A DNA stretch of 45,476 nt. Source: Escherichia phage vB_VIPECOTPH05A. Below are positions 2,336-42,735 of this stretch, in pieces. The notes beneath the pieces are model-generated. The model did no database searches, was not told the DNA's origin, and saw nothing but the letters and a program-made list of their open reading frames with translations. The translations under genes and the position numbers were made by a program. How positions within the stretch are numbered: position 1 is the stretch's first letter; every line of letters starts with the position of its first letter. The stretch lies in the sequence record PQ429079.1, one strand, 5' to 3'.

Positions 2336-2364
2336 AATATAATAGGTGTCAGAGTAATAGTCAA
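2336..2364 (-). promoter_or_regulatory. sigma70-like promoter (TTGACT-N17-TATATT)
   Basis: -35 at 2359-2364 and -10 at 2336-2341 on minus strand, upstream of ORF 2115..2303. Confidence 0.45.
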
Positions 2365-2382
2365 CTAGTCATTACAGAAAAT

Positions 2383-2418: not shown

Positions 2419-2488
2419 AAACAGAGAGCAGAGGGATGATACAGGAGGTTGGAGAAACCAGTATGCCTTTAGCGCCTGGTGCCGTCAA

Positions 2489-2526: not shown

Positions 2527-2562
2527 GGGTGGTGCAAGCACAAACAGCGTAGGGTAATTATA

Positions 2563-2655
2563 TCAACGGCCTTTCAACCCGTCAAAGCATCCCCAGAAGG
2601 CCCCAACCACCGCGCCAGCACCGATAGCCAATAAGATGAAATCAATCTCTGTCAT
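2563..2655 (-). CDS. 30-aa hydrophobic peptide (possible lysis accessory)
   Basis: MTEIDFILLAIGAGAVVGAFWGCFDGLKGR; start overlaps endolysin stop (ATGA); below ORF-track size cutoff. Confidence 0.3.
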   Translation of the reverse strand: MTEIDFILLAIGAGAVVGAFWGCFDGLKGR

Positions 2656-6271: not shown

Positions 6272-6300
6272 AATAGTAGCCTATTCTATCTTAGTGTGCA
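6272..6300 (-). promoter_or_regulatory. sigma70-like promoter (TTGCAC-N17-TACTAT)
   Basis: -35 at 6295-6300 and -10 at 6272-6277 on minus strand, followed by conserved leader AACGAGAGGAGAGACAGAAG-ATG. Confidence 0.5.
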
Positions 6301-7183: not shown

Positions 7184-7384
7184 TTATTCATAGATAATCT
7201 CCGCCTCTCTGTTACGAATAAACAGTTCTTCACCATCCTTTTCTACAAGATACCCGTAGTCGTTGCGGTAAGTAATATCAAACTCATCGCCTATCGAAAC
7301 ACCAAAGTGGCGCAAAGAATGGTCACCATACCTCGGCGGCAGCACATAATCGACATCAATTATTCGAATTCTCATTAACGGCAA
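7184..7384 (-). CDS. hypothetical protein (MRIRI paralog)
   Basis: 66 aa; MRIRIIDVDYVLPPRYGDHSLRHFGVSIGDEF. Confidence 0.45.
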   Translation of the reverse strand: MPLMRIRIIDVDYVLPPRYGDHSLRHFGVSIGDEFDITYRNDYGYLVEKDGEELFIRNREAEIIYE

Positions 7385-7629
7385 CCTCCCTCAGAGTCGT
7401 CGGCACGAGCATCATGATTCGATGCCGTTCTGAATGTTACCGCTGGTGTGCCCAGGACATTCACGGTAAAGGCTTCACCATGTGATTGCTCTAAATCCCA
7501 CTCATCACCTTCCTCGTCTAAAACGTAGAGACGACCGTCGTAGTGTACTTTCAACGAATACTCGTTGCCTTTTATAAACCAACCGCCCATTTCTGCTTTA
7601 GACTCAATACAAATTAATTCTTCCATCAC
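7375..7629 (-). CDS. hypothetical protein
   Basis: 84-aa ORF in the early leftward operon, overlapping neighbours by a few nt. Confidence 0.4.
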   Translation of the reverse strand: MMEELICIESKAEMGGWFIKGNEYSLKVHYDGRLYVLDEEGDEWDLEQSHGEAFTVNVLGTPAVTFRTASNHDARADDSEGGCR

Positions 7630-7826
7630 TTCGCCCCTTTGAATTTAAAATTGTTGCCGATGAGCTTCATTTCATACTCTCGGTAATACGCCGTGGAACT
7701 TAACCCGTGCTCCCTGAGTAAGCTAACGACATAAGAACTTCGGTACACTGTCGATTTCTTTTCAATAATACCTAAGCTACCGTACATCGTTTTCACCAAC
7801 TGACCCTTCCTAAACATAACCCTCAC
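7626..7826 (-). CDS. hypothetical protein
   Basis: first ORF of leftward operon; GTG at 7826 or ATG at 7817; downstream of promoter at 7852-7880. Confidence 0.4.
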   Translation of the reverse strand: MRVMFRKGQLVKTMYGSLGIIEKKSTVYRSSYVVSLLREHGLSSTAYYREYEMKLIGNNFKFKGAK

Positions 7827-7851
7827 TCATCTGTCTCGTTTCGATAAGTGA

Positions 7852-7880
7852 ATAGTATCCTATTATGTTGGGGCGTGCAA
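7852..7880 (-). promoter_or_regulatory. sigma70-like promoter (TTGCAC-N17-TACTAT), leftward
   Basis: -35 at 7875-7880 and -10 at 7852-7857 on minus strand. Confidence 0.5.
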
Positions 7881-8251
7881 GAGAATAGTTACGTTGCCGT
7901 TGTGATTCTTCAGGTAGGGTTGTGCCTTTATTCTTATTACTTGGTAACTAAAGGGCAGGCCCTAAGCCTGCCCAATAATCGTTACATTTTTACGGTTGCG
8001 AATCTACGGCACATTAAGAAAATCAGATACTTAAGAGATATGCCGCCGATGAGAATATAGCTTGCCCAGGGCAACCGGAGATACTTAGGAAGGAAAGTTA
8101 CAATAATTCTCGTGTTCAGTAAGCCTGCTGCTTAACCCTTTGCTTAACGCACGGGTTAAGCATTCTTACAAGGTGAACAGGAATCAAAGTAACTAAGATA
8201 TAGAAGCATCTTAAACGAAGATTTTCATAATGTCAATAGGTGCAATTATGT

Positions 8252-8280
8252 TTGATTTCCCATTATTCGCAATGTATACT
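8252..8280 (+). promoter_or_regulatory. sigma70-like promoter (TTGATT-N17-TATACT), rightward
   Basis: in AT-rich divergent intergenic region 8061-8311; drives the plus-strand replication operon. Confidence 0.45.
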
Positions 8281-8311
8281 TTGTTTCGTTAACTGATAAT
8301 GGGGTTTGAGA

Positions 8312-8482
8312 ATGACGCAGAATGAGGTAGCTGAGCGCATCGGGGTTACCCGTCGCACGCTGAATAACTGGTTAAAGAGTGGGAAGTTCCCGGATTGTTG
8401 TATTCGCATTATGGGCCGTCGTCAGCCAGGTACGTTTGACCCGGAGAAAGTGGAAGCGTGGATTAAGGAGAATGTAAAATGA
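8312..8482 (+). CDS. small HTH DNA-binding protein (56 aa)
   Basis: MTQNEVAERIGVTRRTLNNWLKSGKFP is a clear helix-turn-helix; below ORF-track cutoff; stop overlaps next start (ATGA). Confidence 0.55.
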   Translation: MTQNEVAERIGVTRRTLNNWLKSGKFPDCCIRIMGRRQPGTFDPEKVEAWIKENVK

Positions 8483-8770: not shown

Positions 8771-11038
8771 ATGTCCGATGTAATTTTATCCTACTCGTGG
8801 TCACGTCGCAACGCGCGGGCGGAGAAAAAGGATATAAACGTCAGAACCACACACACGGCAACACTGGACGACCTGAAAGAGCTAATCCAGCCGCTCTATG
8901 CCGTTCGTGACGGGATTAACCCTAAGACCGCACCGGGGTATATCACCGCCGCGTGCGATTTGACACACAGCACCGTAAAAGACCCGGAAACCGGCGACTT
9001 TAAGCAAGCGCGTAAAGGCTTTTTCTATCGCTGCGACGCGTCTGTAAGCAAATCGTCGCTGGCGTACCTGGACTTCGACAGCGCAACACCGGAAGAGTAT
9101 CAGGAAGCTGTGCGCCTGGTTAAGCGCAGCCGCCTGGCTATGTGCCTCTACACCACGGCATCCCATACCGATGAGTCACCACGCTTTCGCGTCGTCATGC
9201 CGCTGGGCCGCCCGGTTGAAGGCGGAGACATCATCCGTGTTCGCCATGGATTGCTGGAACACTTCTTCAAAGGCATGGGCGCGGACCGCAGCGGTTTCAC
9301 TCTGTCGCAGCCTATGTACCTGCCGCCGGTTGGCTCTACCGTTATCTGGTCGCGCCGAAACGACCTGATTGACCCGGAAGAGTTACTGGAAGGCATCCCG
9401 GATTACGAGGTGAGCAGCGCATCTGACTACCAGATACCAGAAGAACTGCGTACCGCGTTTACTGATGCGTTTGAGGCGCTGGCGTTTGAGTACGGCGGTG
9501 TTATGACGCCCCGCGGCCTTAAGATGCCAGCTACGCCGGAACATGCAGAAAATTACAGCGACCCTACGCCGCGCCCGGACGACTTCCTGCTGTGCTTCCC
9601 GCGCGAGGGCTACGAAGCGCCGAACGTAACCATGATCCACGACACTGACATTACGGCAACCGAAGGCATGTCGCCGAAAGAGGTGTGGAAATATGCGTGC
9701 GATGCGACCGGGCTTCCGTTCAGTGAAGTTGCAGAGGCAATCGGTTGGGGTACGCGTGGGTCAGTTTCATGCAGCCTGGACGACCTGGAAGACGATGAGG
9801 ACTCAGAGGAGGGCGAGCTACCGGAACCGGTAAAGGCTGATTTCGTCGTTGAAGGGTACATGCCGTCGGATTGTATCTGGGATATCGTCGGGGAATCTGG
9901 CACGTACAAATCGTTCTATACGCTGGGGATGATGTATCTCAGCGCCGCCGGATACCGGTTTGCGGGGGCGGATACCCAGCGTTGCCATCACTTCTATATT
10001 GATGGTGAGGGTGGCGCGGCCACACGTACGCGTATTGACGCGCTCGCGGCTAAATACGGTGCGGAAGGTAAAGATTACGTACACGTCATCGATATGGGTG
10101 AAGTCGGCAAACTGAAAAGCCTGATTAAGTTGATGCGTGAAACTGCGGGCGATGAACCTATCGGCATGGTCGCGTTCGACACCCTTAACCAGACCCTGGC
10201 CCTGACGATTGATAAGTTTGACGAGAACAGTTCATCAACGGCAATCGGTATGGGTAAAGTTATCGCCATCCTGAAAGAAGTGCGTGACGCAACTAAAGCC
10301 GCGGTGGGCGTCGTTCACCATACGCCGAAGGGGGGAAAGAAAGCCCGTGGTAGTGGCGCTCTGTATGCGGGGGTCGATGTGGAACTGACAATCGAACGCG
10401 CCACCGACCGACAGATAAACGTATATCACTCGAAATTCAAGCACGGGCCTCAGCAGAAGACGGTTGGCATGGTACTGGAGTCTGTACAGTTCCGCGAAGC
10501 ACCACCTCCGAAAGAGTACCGCGCGGTTGAGTTCGTCGGTAACACAGAGGAATACGGCGCAATCGTAAACCTGGACCTGCCTGAGCCGCACAAGGCGCTT
10601 GTGCTGATGCCGTGGGGCTTCGAGCCGTTCAAAACTGACGAGGAGAAAGAGCGGGAAGAAGGGCTGACAAAAGAAGGTAAAGAAAACGTACGTAAAACCG
10701 TAGAGAACGCAGTCAATAGTTCAGAAGCCACGATACTTGCCGCGTTTGAACTGGCGGAAGGAACCTACAACGGCAACGAAGGTATCACGGTAGCCGCAGC
10801 GAATAAGCTGGCACGGTCCGACCCTAACGCGAAGGCGTTTAACTCCAAAGAAGCCATAGAACGCGGGAAGATTAAGAAAATGGTTGAGGCGGGGTATCTT
10901 GTGCCAGGGACCGACGAAAACAATCAGATAATACCTGGCCGCTACAGGCTTAACACCAGGATAACGGATAACAAGATTCCGAAGACAATATACGAGCCGA
11001 ATGAGATGCTGGTGGTGACAGAGGAGGATTTGGAATAG
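8771..11038 (+). CDS. primase/helicase-like replication protein (RecA-like AAA ATPase domain)
   Basis: 755 aa; Walker A GESGTYKS, Walker B-like MVAFD, arginine-finger region; N-terminal primase-like region; ends EEDLE. Confidence 0.65.
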   Translation: MSDVILSYSWSRRNARAEKKDINVRTTHTATLDDLKELIQPLYAVRDGINPKTAPGYITAACDLTHSTVKDPETGDFKQARKGFFYRCDASVSKSSLAYLDFDSATPEEYQEAVRLVKRSRLAMCLYTTASHTDESPRFRVVMPLGRPVEGGDIIRVRHGLLEHFFKGMGADRSGFTLSQPMYLPPVGSTVIWSRRNDLIDPEELLEGIPDYEVSSASDYQIPEELRTAFTDAFEALAFEYGGVMTPRGLKMPATPEHAENYSDPTPRPDDFLLCFPREGYEAPNVTMIHDTDITATEGMSPKEVWKYACDATGLPFSEVAEAIGWGTRGSVSCSLDDLEDDEDSEEGELPEPVKADFVVEGYMPSDCIWDIVGESGTYKSFYTLGMMYLSAAGYRFAGADTQRCHHFYIDGEGGAATRTRIDALAAKYGAEGKDYVHVIDMGEVGKLKSLIKLMRETAGDEPIGMVAFDTLNQTLALTIDKFDENSSSTAIGMGKVIAILKEVRDATKAAVGVVHHTPKGGKKARGSGALYAGVDVELTIERATDRQINVYHSKFKHGPQQKTVGMVLESVQFREAPPPKEYRAVEFVGNTEEYGAIVNLDLPEPHKALVLMPWGFEPFKTDEEKEREEGLTKEGKENVRKTVENAVNSSEATILAAFELAEGTYNGNEGITVAAANKLARSDPNAKAFNSKEAIERGKIKKMVEAGYLVPGTDENNQIIPGRYRLNTRITDNKIPKTIYEPNEMLVVTEEDLE

Positions 11039-11041
11039 GTA

Positions 11042-11066
11042 AAAAGAAAGGGGCGTTAAGCCCCTT
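11042..11066 (-). terminator. hairpin terminator between convergent genes
   Basis: stem AAGGGGC/GCCCCTT; U-run on minus-strand side only. Confidence 0.4.
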
Positions 11067-11271
11067 CACCGAACGCCAGCCACTTGGCGTCTACTTCCAG
11101 CACTTCCGCCAGCTTGAACAGCGTCACCGGGCGGACGTCCTGAGTTACCCCGAGCGCAAGCTGGTTAATTGCGCCCTGGGAAACTCCAGTCAGGACAGCC
11201 AGACGGCGCTGGGAGATGCCAAGTTCTTTACGGCGTTGTTCTACGCGAATGCCTAGTTCAGATGGTTGCAT
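11056..11271 (-). CDS. XRE-family HTH transcriptional regulator (Cro/CI-like)
   Basis: 71 aa; RKELGISQRRLAVLTGVSQGAINQLALG is a typical XRE HTH; opposite strand inside the replication module. Confidence 0.7.
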   Translation of the reverse strand: MQPSELGIRVEQRRKELGISQRRLAVLTGVSQGAINQLALGVTQDVRPVTLFKLAEVLEVDAKWLAFGEGA

Positions 11272-11335
11272 GCCAGTTACTCCTTAGTTAGTTGATATGT
11301 GAATAGTACCATATTAATTATTTTAGAAAAGCCCA

Positions 11336-11364
11336 TTGACACATGAATAGTTCGCTATTATAGT
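11336..11364 (+). promoter_or_regulatory. sigma70 consensus-like promoter (TTGACA-N17-TATAGT)
   Basis: followed by conserved leader AACGAGAGGAGAGAAACGT-ATG at 11396. Confidence 0.6.
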
Positions 11365-11395
11365 TAGCCCATACCAAACGAGAGGAGAGAAACGT

Positions 11396-11653
11396 ATGCG
11401 GTTAATTGACTTGCTGCTTAAAGAACTACCTAAGTATGGTGGTTGGCCTGCAGGCGCTACGGAATGTATTCGGTTTGTAGATGAAGCGACGATTGACTTC
11501 TACGACTCTACCGGAAACTGGCCGTACGATTGTGCAGAGATATATGGCGAGATAGCATCCGGTCTGGTGTGCGAGCCGTCTAGACCGCTTGAAAGTGAAG
11601 TAGTTTACTACGAAGACTATAAAAATGTGCTAAATAAACAGGAGAACAAATAA
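11396..11653 (+). CDS. hypothetical protein
   Basis: 85-aa ORF with strong RBS. Confidence 0.5.
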   Translation: MRLIDLLLKELPKYGGWPAGATECIRFVDEATIDFYDSTGNWPYDCAEIYGEIASGLVCEPSRPLESEVVYYEDYKNVLNKQENK

Positions 11654-12166: not shown

Positions 12167-12502
12167 ATGAACTACGAGAATTTAACAGACATAGAAATTA
12201 ATGCACGTGTCAGCCGCGCGCTATACGGTGATGTTTCGCGAGGGCATCAGATGGAATTGGCTTCTGGAATAGTAGACTATTGTAACCGTATAGATGACGC
12301 ATGGCCTATCATCACCGGTAACAACATCTCGATTGTAGCTACAGATTTAGAATGGATTGCTTTACCGGATAATGCGGTTATCGACGGTATTACCGGAGAC
12401 GCAACCAGTATGATTTACGTAGATGACTCATGTGTTATTGGTAAAAACCCTCTACGCGCCGCTATGATTGTCTTCTTGAGAACGCATGAGGTGGATAAAT
12501 GA
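12167..12502 (+). CDS. hypothetical protein
   Basis: 111-aa ORF. Confidence 0.45.
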   Translation: MNYENLTDIEINARVSRALYGDVSRGHQMELASGIVDYCNRIDDAWPIITGNNISIVATDLEWIALPDNAVIDGITGDATSMIYVDDSCVIGKNPLRAAMIVFLRTHEVDK

Positions 12503-14357: not shown

Positions 14358-14386
14358 TTGACACCTGAATAGTTAGCTATTATAGT
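14358..14386 (+). promoter_or_regulatory. sigma70 consensus-like promoter (TTGACA-N17-TATAGT)
   Basis: near-identical to the promoter at 11336. Confidence 0.6.
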
Positions 14387-15087: not shown

Positions 15088-15110
15088 AAGGCCCTTCATT
15101 GGGCCTTTTT
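15088..15110 (+). terminator. rho-independent terminator
   Basis: stem AAGGCCC/GGGCCTT followed by TTTTT. Confidence 0.6.
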
Positions 15111-18669: not shown

Positions 18670-18950
18670 CTAAAGAGGGGCGCATCCAGAAATACGCAAA
18701 AGAGCGATTCGAGGCTATCGGCGGCCTCGTTCGTAAGCTCTCCTACGAAGGACGTTCCGGCGCTCCTGACCTGCTGGTAATTCTCCCCGGCGGCATAGTC
18801 TGGTTCGTCGAGGTTAAGAAAGACGAAAACACGAAGCCGGACCCGCACCAGTTACGAGAGCACGAGCGTATGCGTAAACGTGGTGCTAATGTTTTTGTCG
18901 TTGGTTCGTTCAAACAGGTTGACGACCTAATAGCGAACTATTATAGTTAG
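18666..18950 (+). CDS. VRR-NUC domain nuclease
   Basis: PD-(D/E)XK core GAPDLLVILPGG...WFVEVKKDE. Confidence 0.65.
   Translation: MTKEGRIQKYAKERFEAIGGLVRKLSYEGRSGAPDLLVILPGGIVWFVEVKKDENTKPDPHQLREHERMRKRGANVFVVGSFKQVDDLIANYYS
18919..18947 (+). promoter_or_regulatory. sigma70 consensus-like promoter (TTGACG-N17-TATAGT)
   Basis: embedded in the 3' end of the VRR-NUC gene; same architecture as promoters at 11336 and 14358. Confidence 0.5.
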
Positions 18951-18980: not shown

Positions 18981-19175
18981 ATGAAACACGAATATGACCG
19001 CAAGCCAGCACGTGACATCGTACCTGGCGACATGATTTTCAACGTTAAGACCCGCCAGCCTGTTGCCGTTGATACTGTGTTCGTCGAGTCAAACGGTAAA
19101 CTGGTTATCGAAGATGTAACAGGCAACGTTACTGCGTTCGGGCGTAAAGAGCTGGTACTCTACGTTAAGGATTGA
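18981..19175 (+). CDS. hypothetical protein
   Basis: 64-aa ORF with RBS AAGGAATTGAG. Confidence 0.45.
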   Translation: MKHEYDRKPARDIVPGDMIFNVKTRQPVAVDTVFVESNGKLVIEDVTGNVTAFGRKELVLYVKD

Positions 19176-21643
19176 ACATGTCTAAATTTATCCGTCGAGG
19201 GTACCAGAAGCTCATGACTTCGTTCATGCTGCAACACCCGCGCTGTAATATCTGGGCCAGTATGGGTAGCGGCAAGTGCCTGAAACGCGGGACTGAAGTT
19301 ATTATGTTTGACGGTACGACCAAGAAAGTAGAAGACGTCATCGTCGGTGACGTGCTTATGGGGCCGGATTCGACGCCTAGAAATGTACTGTCTCTCGGTA
19401 GAGGCCGGGAGATGATGTACGAGGTTAAACCGCGAAAAGGAGAGTCGTATACGGTCAACGAAAGCCATATATTATCCCTGCGAACTACTACAGGGATCGC
19501 AAAAGGTTCATGGCCAGATAATACCGTTTTCGACATAAGCGTCCGCGACTGGCTTAAGTTGCCGAAATATGTAACCGGACCTAATGGGTATCTTAAGGGT
19601 TGGCGGGTACCTGTCGATTTTACAAGGAAAGAGCAGGACGAGGCTTTATTGCCTCCGTACCTTATGGGGTTATGGCTGGGTGACGGTACTTCGTCGTCGG
19701 GGGCCATAACATCAGGAGAGAACGAAAAGGAAATAAGGGCTTATCTTGAGTCGTACGCAGCACGTAATGGGATGCAAATACGAAAAGAAGGACTTACATG
19801 GAGTATATCTTACGGCAACACAGGTCATAAGAAGCACGGGTTTACGCACGCGCTGAAATCGGCGGGTGTCCTGAACAATAAGCATATACCGCATAGTTAC
19901 AAATGCGGCGACCGGCGACAGCGGTTAGAATTGCTGGCGGGGCTTCTGGATAGTGATGGTTACTGCGATTTGTCTAAAGCGGGTTTTGACTGGATTTCGG
20001 TAAGCGAGCGACTTGCTGATGATTTTTGTTATCTATGCCGTTCTCTTGGTTTTGCTGCTTACAAGAAGAAAACTCGTAAGCGTTGCGCAAACACTGATGT
20101 TTGGGGTGACTACTTCCGTGTGTCGGTATCTGGCGATTTTTCTGAGGTACCTTTCGTGCGAGGACGCCACCAGAATTTACCGAAGCGTAATATTAATAAG
20201 AACGTGCTTAACGTTGGGATAGAATCCATAACCCCGGTCGGCGTAGATGATTATTTTGGCTTCACTATCGACGGTGACAGTAGGTTTTTATTGGGGGACT
20301 TCACTGTCACGCACAATACAAGCTCAACGTTGTGGGTTCTCAACCGCCTGTTCCGTAATGGGCAACTTAATGACGACGACCGCGTGTTAATCCTCGCCCC
20401 GTTGCGTGTTGCGTCTGGCACGTGGCCTGCGGAACAGGCACGTTGGGGTTTCCCGTGCCTGCGTGTCGTAGATGCAACTGGTTCAGAGAAGCGCCGCATC
20501 GCGGCGCTGGAGTCGGACGCTAACGTGGTGTGCACTAACTACGAAGTTATCGAATGGCTTATTGACTACTACGGCAAAGACGACTGGCCTTTTACAGTTA
20601 TTGTCGCCGATGAAAGCACGAAGCTGAAATCGTTTCGCAGCCGTTCAGGTGGTAGCAAGCGTGCAAAGGCGCTCAGCAAAGTGGCGTTTGGTAAGGTTAA
20701 GCGTTTTATCAACCTGACCGGTACGCCGTCACCAAACGGCCTCAAAGACTTGTGGGGGCAGAACTGGTTTATAGACGCAGGCGAGCGACTTGGTTCTTCG
20801 TACACGGCATTCACTGACCGCTGGTTTAACTCGGTGCAGAAAGGGAAGTCCGCGATGGCGCGCGAGTATCACGCACGACCGGGTGCAGATAATGAAATTC
20901 ATCAGAAGATGAAGGATATCAGTCTCACTATCGATGCCGCAGAGTGGTTCGGTTGCGAAGCGCCGATTATCGTTCCTGTTGAAATAGACCTGCCGAAGAA
21001 AGCGCGTCAGGCGTACATCGATATGGAGGAGAAGTTATTTGCGGAACTCGAGAGCGGAGAAGTCGAAGCGGCTAATGCCGCGGCGAAGACGTCGAAGTGT
21101 TTGCAGATTGCATCCGGTGCCGTATATGTGTCAGGGCCAGATGGCGAAGCAACAAAAGACTGGGAGAAAGTGCACGACACGAAACTGGATGCGCTCGAGT
21201 CGATTGTTGAGGAGTTACAGGGTGCGCCGTTACTGGTAGCCTATCAGTTTAAGCACGAACTGGAGCGTATCCTTAAGCGATTCCCGCAAGCGCAGGCGTT
21301 TGCCAAAGGCGCTAAGGGTAATAAGCAGATGGAAGCGTGGAACCGTGGGGGAATCGAAATCTTATGCGTTCACCCCGCGTCAGCGGGCCATGGTTTGAAT
21401 TTACAGGACGGTGGACATCATCTGGTATTCATATCGCAAGGCTGGAACCTTGAGCACTATTTGCAGGTTGTCGAGCGCATAGGCCCCGTACGCCAGAAAC
21501 AGGCGGGGCATGAGCGCCCGGTGTTCCTTTATCACATCGTTGCTAAAGACACGCTGGATGAGGTTGTTGCCGCGCGTACAGACGAGAAGAAATCGGTCCA
21601 GGAAGAGTTGCTTAATTACATGAAGAGACGAGGTAAGAAATGA
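19172..21643 (+). CDS. SNF2-family helicase, intein-containing
   Basis: extein has Walker A GSGK|T (split by intein), DEST box VADESTKL, LTGTPSPNGLKDLW, HPASAGHGLNLQ, Q..G...R. Confidence 0.75.
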   Translation: MNMSKFIRRGYQKLMTSFMLQHPRCNIWASMGSGKCLKRGTEVIMFDGTTKKVEDVIVGDVLMGPDSTPRNVLSLGRGREMMYEVKPRKGESYTVNESHILSLRTTTGIAKGSWPDNTVFDISVRDWLKLPKYVTGPNGYLKGWRVPVDFTRKEQDEALLPPYLMGLWLGDGTSSSGAITSGENEKEIRAYLESYAARNGMQIRKEGLTWSISYGNTGHKKHGFTHALKSAGVLNNKHIPHSYKCGDRRQRLELLAGLLDSDGYCDLSKAGFDWISVSERLADDFCYLCRSLGFAAYKKKTRKRCANTDVWGDYFRVSVSGDFSEVPFVRGRHQNLPKRNINKNVLNVGIESITPVGVDDYFGFTIDGDSRFLLGDFTVTHNTSSTLWVLNRLFRNGQLNDDDRVLILAPLRVASGTWPAEQARWGFPCLRVVDATGSEKRRIAALESDANVVCTNYEVIEWLIDYYGKDDWPFTVIVADESTKLKSFRSRSGGSKRAKALSKVAFGKVKRFINLTGTPSPNGLKDLWGQNWFIDAGERLGSSYTAFTDRWFNSVQKGKSAMAREYHARPGADNEIHQKMKDISLTIDAAEWFGCEAPIIVPVEIDLPKKARQAYIDMEEKLFAELESGEVEAANAAAKTSKCLQIASGAVYVSGPDGEATKDWEKVHDTKLDALESIVEELQGAPLLVAYQFKHELERILKRFPQAQAFAKGAKGNKQMEAWNRGGIEILCVHPASAGHGLNLQDGGHHLVFISQGWNLEHYLQVVERIGPVRQKQAGHERPVFLYHIVAKDTLDEVVAARTDEKKSVQEELLNYMKRRGKK
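19277..20317 (+). mobile_element. intein with LAGLIDADG homing endonuclease domain (347 aa)
   Basis: begins Cys (CLKRGTEVIMFDG) right after GSGK, ends ...THN followed by Thr; two LAGLIDADG-like blocks LMGLWLGDGT and LLAGLLDSDGY. Confidence 0.75.
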
Positions 21644-21777: not shown

Positions 21778-21809
21778 AGAAAAGGCCCCTTTCGGGGCCT
21801 TGTTTATTT
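21776..21809. terminator. bidirectional rho-independent terminator
   Basis: stem AGGCCCC/GGGGCCT flanked by A-run and T-run, at convergence of the replication and structural modules. Confidence 0.7.
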
Positions 21810-31258: not shown

Positions 31259-31287
31259 TTGCACACCCCAATATAATAGGGTACTAT
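31259..31287 (+). promoter_or_regulatory. sigma70-like promoter (TTGCAC-N17-TACTAT) for opposite-strand island
   Basis: drives plus-strand genes from 31316 inside the minus-strand tail operon. Confidence 0.5.
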
Positions 31288-31315
31288 TCACCCGTAACTT
31301 ACTGAGGAAACAATT

Positions 31316-33422: not shown

Positions 33423-33452
33423 GAAAAAGGCCCCGTTAGGGGCCTTAGTTTT
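33422..33452. terminator. bidirectional rho-independent terminator
   Basis: stem AGGCCCC/GGGGCCT flanked by A5 and T-rich runs, between island and major tail gene. Confidence 0.7.
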
Positions 33453-40237: not shown

Positions 40238-40488
40238 GTTTCCCCTTTCTCGATAAGTAAAGCCCCGCCTTAAAGCGGGGCGCTAGTCCTTATCATTTAA
40301 ACATAGAAACGGCGTAATCTCAGTAAACCAGTTACTTTTTACACAAGCAATAGAGTATGGCCCTTCCGAACGCGTCAGCGTAACTACACTCAGGACTTAC
40401 GTCCCGCTCCGTTACCTGCCCGCGCCGCGGTCGCTTGTTCATACTTCACAAGCTCAGGTGGAGCTTATCATATTTTCAGTGAAAAGTC

Positions 40489-40504
40489 AACTATTCGAAT
40501 AGTT
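40489..40504. promoter_or_regulatory. perfect 16-bp palindrome AACTATTCGAATAGTT (operator-like)
   Basis: exact inverted repeat about 55 bp upstream of promoter at 40557; half-site ACTATTC recurs in -10/start regions of other promoters. Confidence 0.45.
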
Positions 40505-40556: not shown

Positions 40557-40585
40557 TTGCGCGCACCAACATAATAGGGTACTAT
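40557..40585 (+). promoter_or_regulatory. sigma70-like promoter (TTGCGC-N17-TACTAT)
   Basis: same -10/start context (GGGTACTATTCA) as promoter at 31259. Confidence 0.5.
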
Positions 40586-40612
40586 TCAGTTAACTTAAAC
40601 AGGAGATGAGAA

Positions 40613-41137: not shown

Positions 41138-41166
41138 TAAGGCCCCATATGGGGCCTTTTATCATT
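41138..41166. terminator. bidirectional rho-independent terminator
   Basis: stem AAGGCCCC/GGGGCCTT with T4 run. Confidence 0.7.
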
Positions 41167-41623: not shown

Positions 41624-42699
41624 TATTCCCCTTTCAGATAATCAGCAACACGTTTATCGAGTTCCGCCATCTGCTTAAGCGTGAGCGGATTCCCGAAACC
41701 ATCTACAGATATTACGCGAAACTCTTCCGGCGATATACCGCTGTTACGGAAAATCTTACCGCGGGTCGGCCCGAGTGCTTCGTCCACGAACCACGCCGGT
41801 TGTTGTTCCAGGAACTCGTAGTAAGTGGTGTCTGCGCTTACCTGAGTACCTCCGTCCGCGCCCTTAGCCGCACGTTTTGCACCTTTATCGAGGAAGTCGA
41901 ACTCTGAACTGATTACAGGTGCCGTGGTACTTCGGCACCCAAAATGGGCCGGGGGTATCGGCCCCTTACCGATTTCCCACGTCATTCCGTCTCTGGCCCT
42001 ACAAATCGTACTGGTACGGCTGTCTAGCGTTGACACCCACTCGTACTTCTCGATGATGTCGTCGTTCTGGCGGTACGTCTCGTTACGGGCCTCGTTGGAT
42101 ACATGAGACAGCGCGGTGCGGATTACCGTAGCTGCGTTACGCTCGGAGATGTCCGCCAAACCACCAGCACCAACAACATTCTTAACAATCTGCCGTGTTG
42201 TCTTACCCTGAACAAAGCCCATCTTAACGCCGGTTACGAGACGTGCTACTTCGGTTTCGCCCCATCCCGACATCAGCTTAGTGAAATCAACAGGCTTGTC
42301 GCTTAATGATAAGGGTTGAAACTCGGCAGCGGACCACACCTGTTCGGCGGTAGGCGTAACAAATTCCGCATCTACGTTGGTGGTCAGTGTCTTTACATTC
42401 CACTCGGCCTCATACGCCGCCAGTTCCATAAGGTCTTCTGTCAGCTTTGTTTGCCAGTCACCGGTAAGCGCGGTAAGTGCTTCTTCAAGGTCGCGTAACA
42501 GTTTATTCAGTCGCGCGGTGCTTCGCCCGTCGTCGCCGAATAACAGCACCTGCCGTTTTATTTCGTCCCGCATCTCCTTAATGAACGGCGCGAGGTCTTT
42601 CACCTCACCGGATGCAGTGCGTTGCAGCCATATCTGGTGGCTGATTAGAGATGTAAGTAAGCTCATAGATAAACCCTGTGGCGCTAAAGTTAATAGCAT
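41623..42699 (-). CDS. head morphogenesis protein (SPP1 gp7 / Mu F-like)
   Basis: WVSTLDSRTSTICRARDGMTWEIGKGPIPPAHFGCRSTT fits that family; real start may be Met at 42666. Confidence 0.65.
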   Translation of the reverse strand: MLLTLAPQGLSMSLLTSLISHQIWLQRTASGEVKDLAPFIKEMRDEIKRQVLLFGDDGRSTARLNKLLRDLEEALTALTGDWQTKLTEDLMELAAYEAEWNVKTLTTNVDAEFVTPTAEQVWSAAEFQPLSLSDKPVDFTKLMSGWGETEVARLVTGVKMGFVQGKTTRQIVKNVVGAGGLADISERNAATVIRTALSHVSNEARNETYRQNDDIIEKYEWVSTLDSRTSTICRARDGMTWEIGKGPIPPAHFGCRSTTAPVISSEFDFLDKGAKRAAKGADGGTQVSADTTYYEFLEQQPAWFVDEALGPTRGKIFRNSGISPEEFRVISVDGFGNPLTLKQMAELDKRVADYLKGE

Positions 42700-42735
42700 A
42701 CTATAAGAAAGCCCCTTTCGGGGCTATATGTGAAC

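Follow-up and report, generated by a model that had tools for sequence, protein, structure and literature searches.

What does a gene for a small repressor-like protein do in a phage that is strictly virulent? The question is raised by Escherichia phage vB_VIPECOTPH05A (PQ429079.1), in which a 71-aa XRE-type regulator (hereafter XRE) is encoded against the operon that surrounds it. The window analysed here is the whole stretch of 45,476 nt, a complete-length Kagunavirus genome of ~45.5 kb (Guernseyvirinae, K1G-like siphophage) that shares 90-93% identity with many E. coli phages. An initial annotation of this DNA proposed that the protein either regulates internal promoters or is a remnant of a temperate ancestor. 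Our in silico analysis favours the former, since one palindrome is found at the rightward promoter next to the gene, P(11336), upstream of XRE itself and at about nine other places, most of them promoters. The predicted regulatory scope is therefore wider than the annotation had proposed. We consider it probable that XRE is a Cro-type repressor that works as a homodimer, turns off early and middle promoters and controls its own synthesis.

The gene and its immediate locus contain the following features, where operator means a predicted site, here and throughout.

11056..11271, minus strand: gene of the XRE/434-Cro-like regulator, 71 aa, with a single helix-turn-helix (HTH) domain and an ATG start (open reading frame (ORF) plus Pfam HTH_3).
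11280..11285, minus strand: Shine-Dalgarno sequence AAGGAG, 8 nt 5' of the ATG (read in the sequence; invariant in a three-genus alignment).
11047..11067, minus strand: intrinsic terminator of the XRE transcript, overlapping the stop codon, with a U-run in the minus direction only.
11302..11315, no strand: left operator with one mismatch, AATAGTACCATATT, scoring 19.6 bits with a position weight matrix (PWM) and overlapping the putative -10 of XRE.
11336..11364, plus strand: rightward promoter P(11336), TTGACA-17-TATAGT, found in a consensus scan.
11346..11359, no strand: right operator, perfect palindrome AATAGTTCGCTATT, in the spacer of P(11336) and centred at ~-18.5.

The gene opposes its operon, as first described: it lies on the minus strand, and both flanks are on the plus strand, namely the helicase-primase gene (8771-11038) and an 85-aa ORF that starts at 11396 and encodes a protein without known function. 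The divergent intergenic region is 11272-11395. Its promoter P(11336), which the annotation had called strong, matches the consensus at 11 of 12 positions and is the joint best in the window; it heads the genes for the 85-aa ORF, a 156-aa ORF, a NinX-like protein, a ProQ-C-like protein and a DUF2800 exonuclease. XRE itself is monocistronic with its own terminator. Because the U-run of this terminator is present in the minus direction only, the converging helicase-primase transcript probably leaks through it, and antisense read-through of that transcript into the XRE gene is possible.

A putative promoter for XRE would consist of the -10 element TACTAT (11308..11303) with a TG at 11311..11310, that is, an extended -10 with no good -35. 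It is the mismatch in the left operator that creates this TGn extended -10, and the mismatch is kept in the genomes L002, L045 and L046. The perfect dyad in the spacer of P(11336) reads AATAGttcgCTATT. The two palindromes are 44 bp apart and bracket the XRE control region, and both promoters adjoining the gene therefore carry a copy. We also considered whether the right operator might activate the leftward promoter, as lambda CI does at P_RM, and set this aside; the operator centre would lie at ~-56.5 from the putative start, and activation from that position is not known. The conserved leader AAACGAGAGGAGAG, with a Shine-Dalgarno sequence in it, lies at 11376-11389 and is also found 3' of the promoters at 6272 (minus strand) and 2356 (minus strand).

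Across the window, AATAG-N4-CTATT with at most one mismatch occurs 12 times against 1.33 expected, and none of 100 shuffles reached 12. An unbiased scan covering every 5+5 palindrome with a gap of 0-8 returned this same dyad as the commonest, at 8 perfect copies where the null never exceeded 3; the runners-up were GC-rich terminator hairpins. The extended half-site TGAATAGT is present in 7 copies (1.17 expected). By PWM score, nine sites reach at least 19.6 bits and three weaker ones 14-16 bits, with the background at or below 10.8 bits. Nine of the 12 palindromes fall in the non-coding 8% of the genome (P = 2e-8). The 5+5 half-site positions are rich in information, and the inner 4 nt carry little. 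Invariant half-sites around a variable centre read as the signature of a dimeric binding site, not of duplicated cassettes. Several copies of the composite of promoter plus palindrome were found in contigs of this family of phages alone; elsewhere there were 38 single matches, which lacked a -35 at a suitable distance and resemble chance occurrences.

The sites beyond the XRE locus are listed below; none is assigned a strand, and the direction given is that of the promoter.

2356..2369: one-mismatch site on the -35 of leftward TTGACT-17-TATATT (2364..2336), which heads small genes and then the terminase genes; this site variant is also kept in Jerseyvirus.
6272..6285: perfect copy covering the -10 of leftward TTGCAC-17-TACTAT, in front of small early genes that run leftward.
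7851..7864: perfect copy covering the -10 of a further leftward TTGCAC-17-TACTAT, in front of small genes that run leftward (7826..7375 onward).
12268..12281: perfect copy within the NinX-like gene; it has no promoter around it, is missing from the close relative L002 and is of uncertain function.
14368..14381: perfect copy within the spacer of TTGACA-17-TATAGT (14358-14386), which precedes the genes for a single-stranded DNA-binding protein and DNA polymerase.
18929..18942: perfect copy within the spacer of TTGACG-17-TATAGT (18919-18947), which precedes a small gene and the gene for the SNF2 helicase.
31275..31288: perfect palindrome over the -10 of rightward TTGCAC-17-TACTAT, heading a rightward island (108-aa ORF, metallophosphoesterase/exonuclease) within the tail gene block.
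40482..40504: half-site cluster made of a one-mismatch site (40482-40495) and a perfect 16-bp palindrome (40489-40504).
40573..40586: perfect palindrome over the -10 of rightward TTGCGC-17-TACTAT, heading a RusA-like island.
42692..42705: one-mismatch match over the start codon of a head-morphogenesis gene, beside a terminator, scoring 16.1 bits; a doubtful member.

Promoters of the sigma-70 type that carry the palindrome stand before most of the early and middle transcription units, and the palindromes occupy three registers on them. In class A (11346, 14368 and 18929), the promoter is TTGACA/G-17-TATAGT with 10-11 of 12 consensus matches and the palindrome lies in the spacer, centred at ~-18.5; these promoters head the recombination and replication operons. 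Class B comprises the conserved TTGCRC-17-TACTAT elements with the palindrome over the -10 (centre ~-12.5), at 31275 and 40573 on the plus strand, at 6272 and 7851 on the minus strand, and, with one mismatch, at 11302 before the XRE gene. In class C, at 2356 and 40482 (both minus strand), a one-mismatch palindrome is centred on a TTGACT -35, at ~-33.5; the promoter at 40482-40495 is weak and points leftward to the spanin and head genes. The palindrome at 40489, already singled out by the annotation, is real: AACTATTC/GAATAGTT is a perfect 16-mer, 100% complementary, built from the half-site of the motif in the opposite arrangement. The intragenic copy at 12268 could act as a roadblock, be the scar of a recombination event or have arisen by chance.

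Total sigma-70 consensus matches were no higher than in shuffles, and only the top-scoring matches in non-coding DNA that face genes are informative. Among the non-coding promoters with 10-11 of 12 matches that face protein genes, three of four carry the palindrome and the fourth has a one-mismatch copy. No palindrome was found at the promoter (8252-8280) of the helicase-primase operon, which is headed by a second small HTH gene, HTH2. Because all three registers overlap the core promoter, they argue for repression by occlusion as the predicted mode of action. Twisting of the spacer in the manner of MerR was set aside, the spacers already having the optimal 17 bp.

Some neighbours of these sites were noted in their own right. 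At 2385-2585 on the minus strand, between the endolysin gene and the palindrome promoter at 2364, lie two tandem units, each consisting of a strong sigma-70 promoter, ~55-65 nt of non-coding DNA and an intrinsic terminator. Their promoters are TTGACG-17-TATAAT with an extended -10 (2585..2557) and TTGACG-17-CATACT (2488..2460); the units are candidate small RNAs or decoy transcripts and have no Rfam match, as was the case for the whole window. The SNF2-type helicase gene (19172-21643, plus strand) carries an intein with Hint and LAGLIDADG homing endonuclease domains, and relatives have inteins in helicase and DNA polymerase. Near-identical GC-rich hairpins, AAGGCCCC-N4-GGGGCCTT, occur at 15089-15106, 21783-21800, 33428-33445 and 41140-41157, three of the four at strand-switch points, as bidirectional terminators.

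The motif itself has been described before. In the genome of fBC-Eco01, whose XRE is 100% identical to that of the window, PHIRE gave seven copies with the consensus tgAATAGTa-ccTATTat-T, and these were assigned to a "phage-encoded RNA polymerase" (PMC9825357); for phage Golestan, seven PHIRE promoters are listed (PMC7203180). Neither paper connects the motif with an HTH protein. That the motif is the promoter of a phage-encoded or phage-modified RNA polymerase would agree with the seven copies in each of these two phages and with the observation that all gene-head copies face genes. Yet no RNA polymerase gene was found among the window ORFs of at least 190 aa or in annotated relatives. The element is, moreover, a dyad in three registers relative to good sigma-70 hexamers, there is no constraint on its inner 4 nt, a perfect copy lies inside a gene without promoter context, and the left half-site of class A lies in spacer DNA that is unread by sigma-70. 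We regard this published reading as very unlikely.

Pfam scans of every window ORF of at least 190 aa returned replication, recombination, structural and packaging domains only, with no integrase, recombinase or RNA polymerase among them, and the closest collinear relative, PQ423993, likewise has no integrase, CI or RNA polymerase among its 76 annotated genes. The statement of the annotation that no integrase or other lysogeny gene is present is borne out by these searches. For Jerseyvirus, CI and Cro have been stated to be absent (PMC5217580).

The XRE protein is readily placed in a family. It matches Pfam HTH_3 (PF01381) over residues 11-65 with E = 1.1e-11 and 45 bits against a cut-off of 23, in agreement with the Cro/CI-like assignment of the annotation, and it is also above the cut-offs of HTH_19 and HTH_31. 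The best solved relative is phage 434 Cro (phmmer E = 4e-6, residues 6-68). An AlphaFold2 (AF2) model has helices at residues 5-17, 21-28, 32-39, 48-57 and 62-66 and no second domain, and Foldseek matched it to SinR-N, C.AhdI, 434 repressor, 434 Cro, P22 C2, HipB and CapH, with template modelling (TM) scores of 0.72-0.75 to 2cro and 3cro. Of these proteins, SinR-N, C.AhdI, 434 repressor, 434 Cro, P22 C2 and HipB are homodimers on palindromes. With a length in the range of 65-75 aa, a five-helix lambda-repressor-like fold and no extra domain, XRE has the make-up of a 434 Cro-type protein. It is not of the CI/LexA type, consisting of an HTH domain only (71 aa) without the S24 peptidase/oligomerisation C-terminus. 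Nor is its locus a lambdoid immunity region, having no CI, no integrase and two sites instead of three.

Many relatives carry the gene in GenBank under the names "transcriptional repressor", "DicA" or "cro". The DicA label is unjustified and should not be transferred, because XRE scores far below the cut-off of that model (NCBIfam NF007257; 42.1 bits against 101). Another explanation is that XRE acts locally only, or as the partner of a toxin-antitoxin, defence or controller system, and has nothing to do with the genome-wide palindrome. This view is consistent with weak matches to capH (E = 1.5e-5), to restriction-modification (R-M) control proteins and to HipB/DicA-type models, and with C.AhdI, HipB and CapH among the Foldseek matches. 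All NCBIfam matches are, however, far under their cut-offs (30.6 against 71.65 for the HipB-type model), the gene is monocistronic, and neither padloc nor NCBIfam matched the ORFs beside it to a defence or toxin gene, so that membership among the antitoxins (HipB/HigA/MqsA) or with CapH was not found. The promoters adjoining XRE also carry the same palindrome as the dispersed sites. We judge a purely local or partner role to be quite improbable.

Selection on the gene bears on the second proposal of the annotation, a remnant of a temperate ancestor. Beyond the subfamily, XRE is most closely related to proteins in the Cro slot of temperate lambdoid phages, among them a 43%-identical homologue that lies between CI and CII in Klebsiella phage GZ7. 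In the evolutionary sense the proposal therefore stands. As a statement of decay it does not: the ratio of nonsynonymous to synonymous substitution rates (dN/dS) of XRE is 0.03-0.08 within Kagunavirus and similar within Jerseyvirus, and the gene is present in 555 phage records (tblastn) and kept in three genera. That XRE is an inert Cro remnant with no present function would fit this ancestry and the lack of a CI or integrase partner; against it stand the low dN/dS, the 555 records and the ribosome-binding site, start and terminator, all conserved across genera. Among ~186,000 species-representative bacterial genomes, furthermore, no close copy and thus no recent prophage source was found; the matches were generic XRE proteins only, the best with 49% identity in an unrelated metagenome-assembled genome. 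Single-protein scans of viral contigs with XRE returned only close Jersey- and Cornell-type relatives. An inert remnant is highly improbable in our view, and XRE is plausibly a gene of Cro ancestry that is nevertheless maintained as a functional regulator.

The arrangement of the locus differs between genera. In Cornellvirus-type phages, the XRE gene lies directly upstream of the helicase-primase gene and is co-directional with it (3874-4095 in L004, TS6; 11098-11313 in L006, SP-031). This layout mirrors the lambdoid order from cro to the replication genes, whereas the layout in the window is converging. Kagunavirus and Jerseyvirus have a different helicase-primase module in this converging orientation, accompanied by HTH2.

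8312-8482, plus strand: HTH2, a 56-aa HTH_17/excisionase-like protein that heads the helicase-primase operon.

HTH2 is the chief candidate if another phage protein binds the palindromes and the role of XRE is narrower or its target a different one. It is 87.5% identical between Kagunavirus and Jerseyvirus, which have the AATAG core in common, and Cornellvirus and TS6, in which that core is missing, have no HTH2 either; it also occurs in the same 442 genomes as the palindrome. XRE, by comparison, is ~50% identical between Kagunavirus and Jerseyvirus. The two proteins are inseparable by presence or absence, being found in essentially the same Kagunavirus and Jerseyvirus genomes, and their recognition helices in rarer lineages were compared instead.

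From Kagunavirus to Jerseyvirus, the XRE helix changes from SQGAINQ to SQSLITH, while the HTH2 helix TRRTLNNWL is identical. At orthologous sites, the base flanking the core is G in 8 of 16 half-sites of Kagunavirus (a G/T mix) and T in 8 of 8 in each of two Jerseyvirus genomes; the flank thus differs although the HTH2 helix does not. In the metagenomic Kagunavirus-like L045 and L046 it is HTH2 that has changed its helix, to TRQTINNWI and STMTLNRWL, and the palindrome is the same, with a G/T flank, as is the helix of XRE (78-79% identical overall). Cornellvirus SP-031 and TS6 lack HTH2 and have an XRE of ~41% identity with the helix TQSAISH. AATAG-N4-CTATT is absent from both. Even without HTH2 they have an enriched palindrome embedded in promoters, TATTA-N6-TAATA, with 3 perfect copies against 0 in 30 resamples and, at up to one mismatch, 7-9 copies against a mean of 0.9 and a maximum of 3. 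This dyad overlaps core promoters at orthologous positions, and it shows no enrichment in the window or in Ent1. HTH2 has, in addition, an own promoter without the palindrome, and to our knowledge 56-aa HTH_17/excisionase-type proteins have no obvious dimerisation element. Taken together, these comparisons of sequence favour a palindrome that tracks the XRE recognition helix and not HTH2, and we think HTH2 an unlikely binder.

The same lineages speak to a host DNA-binding protein as the factor that recognises the palindrome. Between Jerseyvirus and Cornellvirus the palindrome differs although the host, Salmonella, is the same; between Kagunavirus (E. coli) and Jerseyvirus the host differs and the core does not. 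A host factor is unlikely because the identity of the palindrome does not follow the host, and we give this explanation very little credence.

HTH2 was otherwise found in Kagunavirus and Jerseyvirus only, and among Kagunavirus-like lineages its recognition helix is variable. In the window, its operon is preceded on the 5' side by ~430 nt without a credible ORF (7880-8310), which contain several inverted repeats and a leftward TTGACA-17-TAAGAT (8236..8208) aimed at a terminator (7973..7953). This region could be a non-coding RNA or a replication origin.

Several observations weigh against a Cro-type repressor acting at all these sites. The recognition helices of XRE in Kagunavirus and Jerseyvirus differ at 4 of 7 positions, and the 5+5 core is identical with one flank base changed. 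Moreover, the Jerseyvirus helix is closer to that of Cornellvirus than to that of Kagunavirus, despite the differing palindromes. The co-variation rests on three or four independent lineages, and HTH2 accompanies the AATAG palindrome throughout the 442 genomes. On the promoter side, the class B elements are weak by the sigma-70 consensus (7-8 of 12), and the own promoter of XRE was missed by the consensus scan. The right half-site partly coincides with -10-like sequence (TACTAT, CTATTAT), and some of the conservation of the palindrome may stem from the promoter. The AF2 model is of moderate confidence, with a predicted local distance difference test (pLDDT) score of 77. In the literature on Guernseyvirinae, finally, no transcriptome, footprint, reporter or operator study was found; PMC5582158 does not discuss the XRE gene, and the subject of PMC12538581 is Staphylococcus phage K.

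Among the closest known systems is 434 Cro, together with the N-terminal domains of the 434 and P22 repressors. 434 Cro resembles XRE in its 71 aa, its five-helix HTH_3 fold and 37-40% sequence identity, and probably also in a dyad of ~14-16 bp over promoters and in turning down early transcription. Unlike 434 Cro, XRE has no CI partner, no tripartite OR/OL and no lysis-lysogeny decision, and its operators are dispersed over ~9-12 places. The 434 operator is ACAA-N6-TTGT, which differs from AATAG-N4-CTATT. One repressor with many operators at or near promoters throughout the genome is known from P1 C1 and from the 'stoperators' of mycobacteriophage L5 gp71. Those proteins, however, maintain lysogeny, bind asymmetric sites, and are larger and unrelated or distantly related to XRE, whereas the phage here is virulent and its sites are palindromic. 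C proteins such as C.AhdI are XRE dimers of ~70-80 aa with a close fold match; they act as timing devices of R-M systems through operators of graded affinity at their own promoter. XRE differs in having no adjacent R-M genes and many target promoters, and its match to the control-protein model is weak (E = 1.4e-3). E. coli DicA shares the N-terminal HTH_3 domain, but has 135 aa with a further C-terminal region.

For a repressor of the Cro type we propose the following course of events, in which we infer dimerisation, binding, the sign of regulation and the timing. On entry, host RNA polymerase would fire all sigma-70 promoters of the phage, and the same polymerase would support early synthesis of XRE from its weak leftward extended -10 promoter. 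The XRE dimer would then bind (G/T)AATAG-N4-CTATT(C/A), for which a suitable test form is TGAATAGTTCGCTATTCA, and, because the palindrome overlaps the spacer, the -10 or the -35, a bound dimer would block RNA polymerase. Perfect dyads would be filled first, so that the leftward small genes, the recombination and replication genes and the rightward islands would be turned down. The result would be a delayed negative feedback, as lambda and 434 Cro damp early transcription in lytic growth. At a higher level, XRE would fill the weaker one-mismatch site over its own -10 and thereby limit its own synthesis.

More tentatively, graded operators of this one 71-aa Cro-like protein might supply much of the temporal programme of a virulent phage without its own RNA polymerase, sigma factor or CI, a possibility that we hold to be well short of probable. 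The perfect sites are on early and middle promoters, and conserved one-mismatch sites are on the XRE promoter and on two leftward promoters that lead into genes for packaging, lysis and the head. By regulating itself through a weak site, XRE would then be kept at a level that silences the promoters with perfect sites and spares the (late) promoters with weak sites. If true, the specificities of Kagunavirus, Jerseyvirus and Cornellvirus would act like immunity types without lysogeny.

Neither the protein family nor the mechanism is out of the ordinary; unusual is a genome-wide regulon without CI in a virulent phage. The gene was already known as a "repressor" and the motif as "phage promoters", and it is the connection of the two that is new. 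It corrects the reading of the motif (PMC9825357) as promoters of a phage RNA polymerase in phages without that gene. Kagunavirus and Jerseyvirus are widely isolated and have been proposed for therapy and food biocontrol. The labels "repressor", "DicA" and "cro" can suggest a temperate lifestyle in such phages, and an understanding of XRE as most likely a regulator of the lytic cycle removes this ambiguity. The result is a testable circuit of one protein, one 14-16-bp site and ~9-12 targets, and the two or three natural specificities of repressor, operator and promoter found in this family may serve as compact parts for phage engineering.

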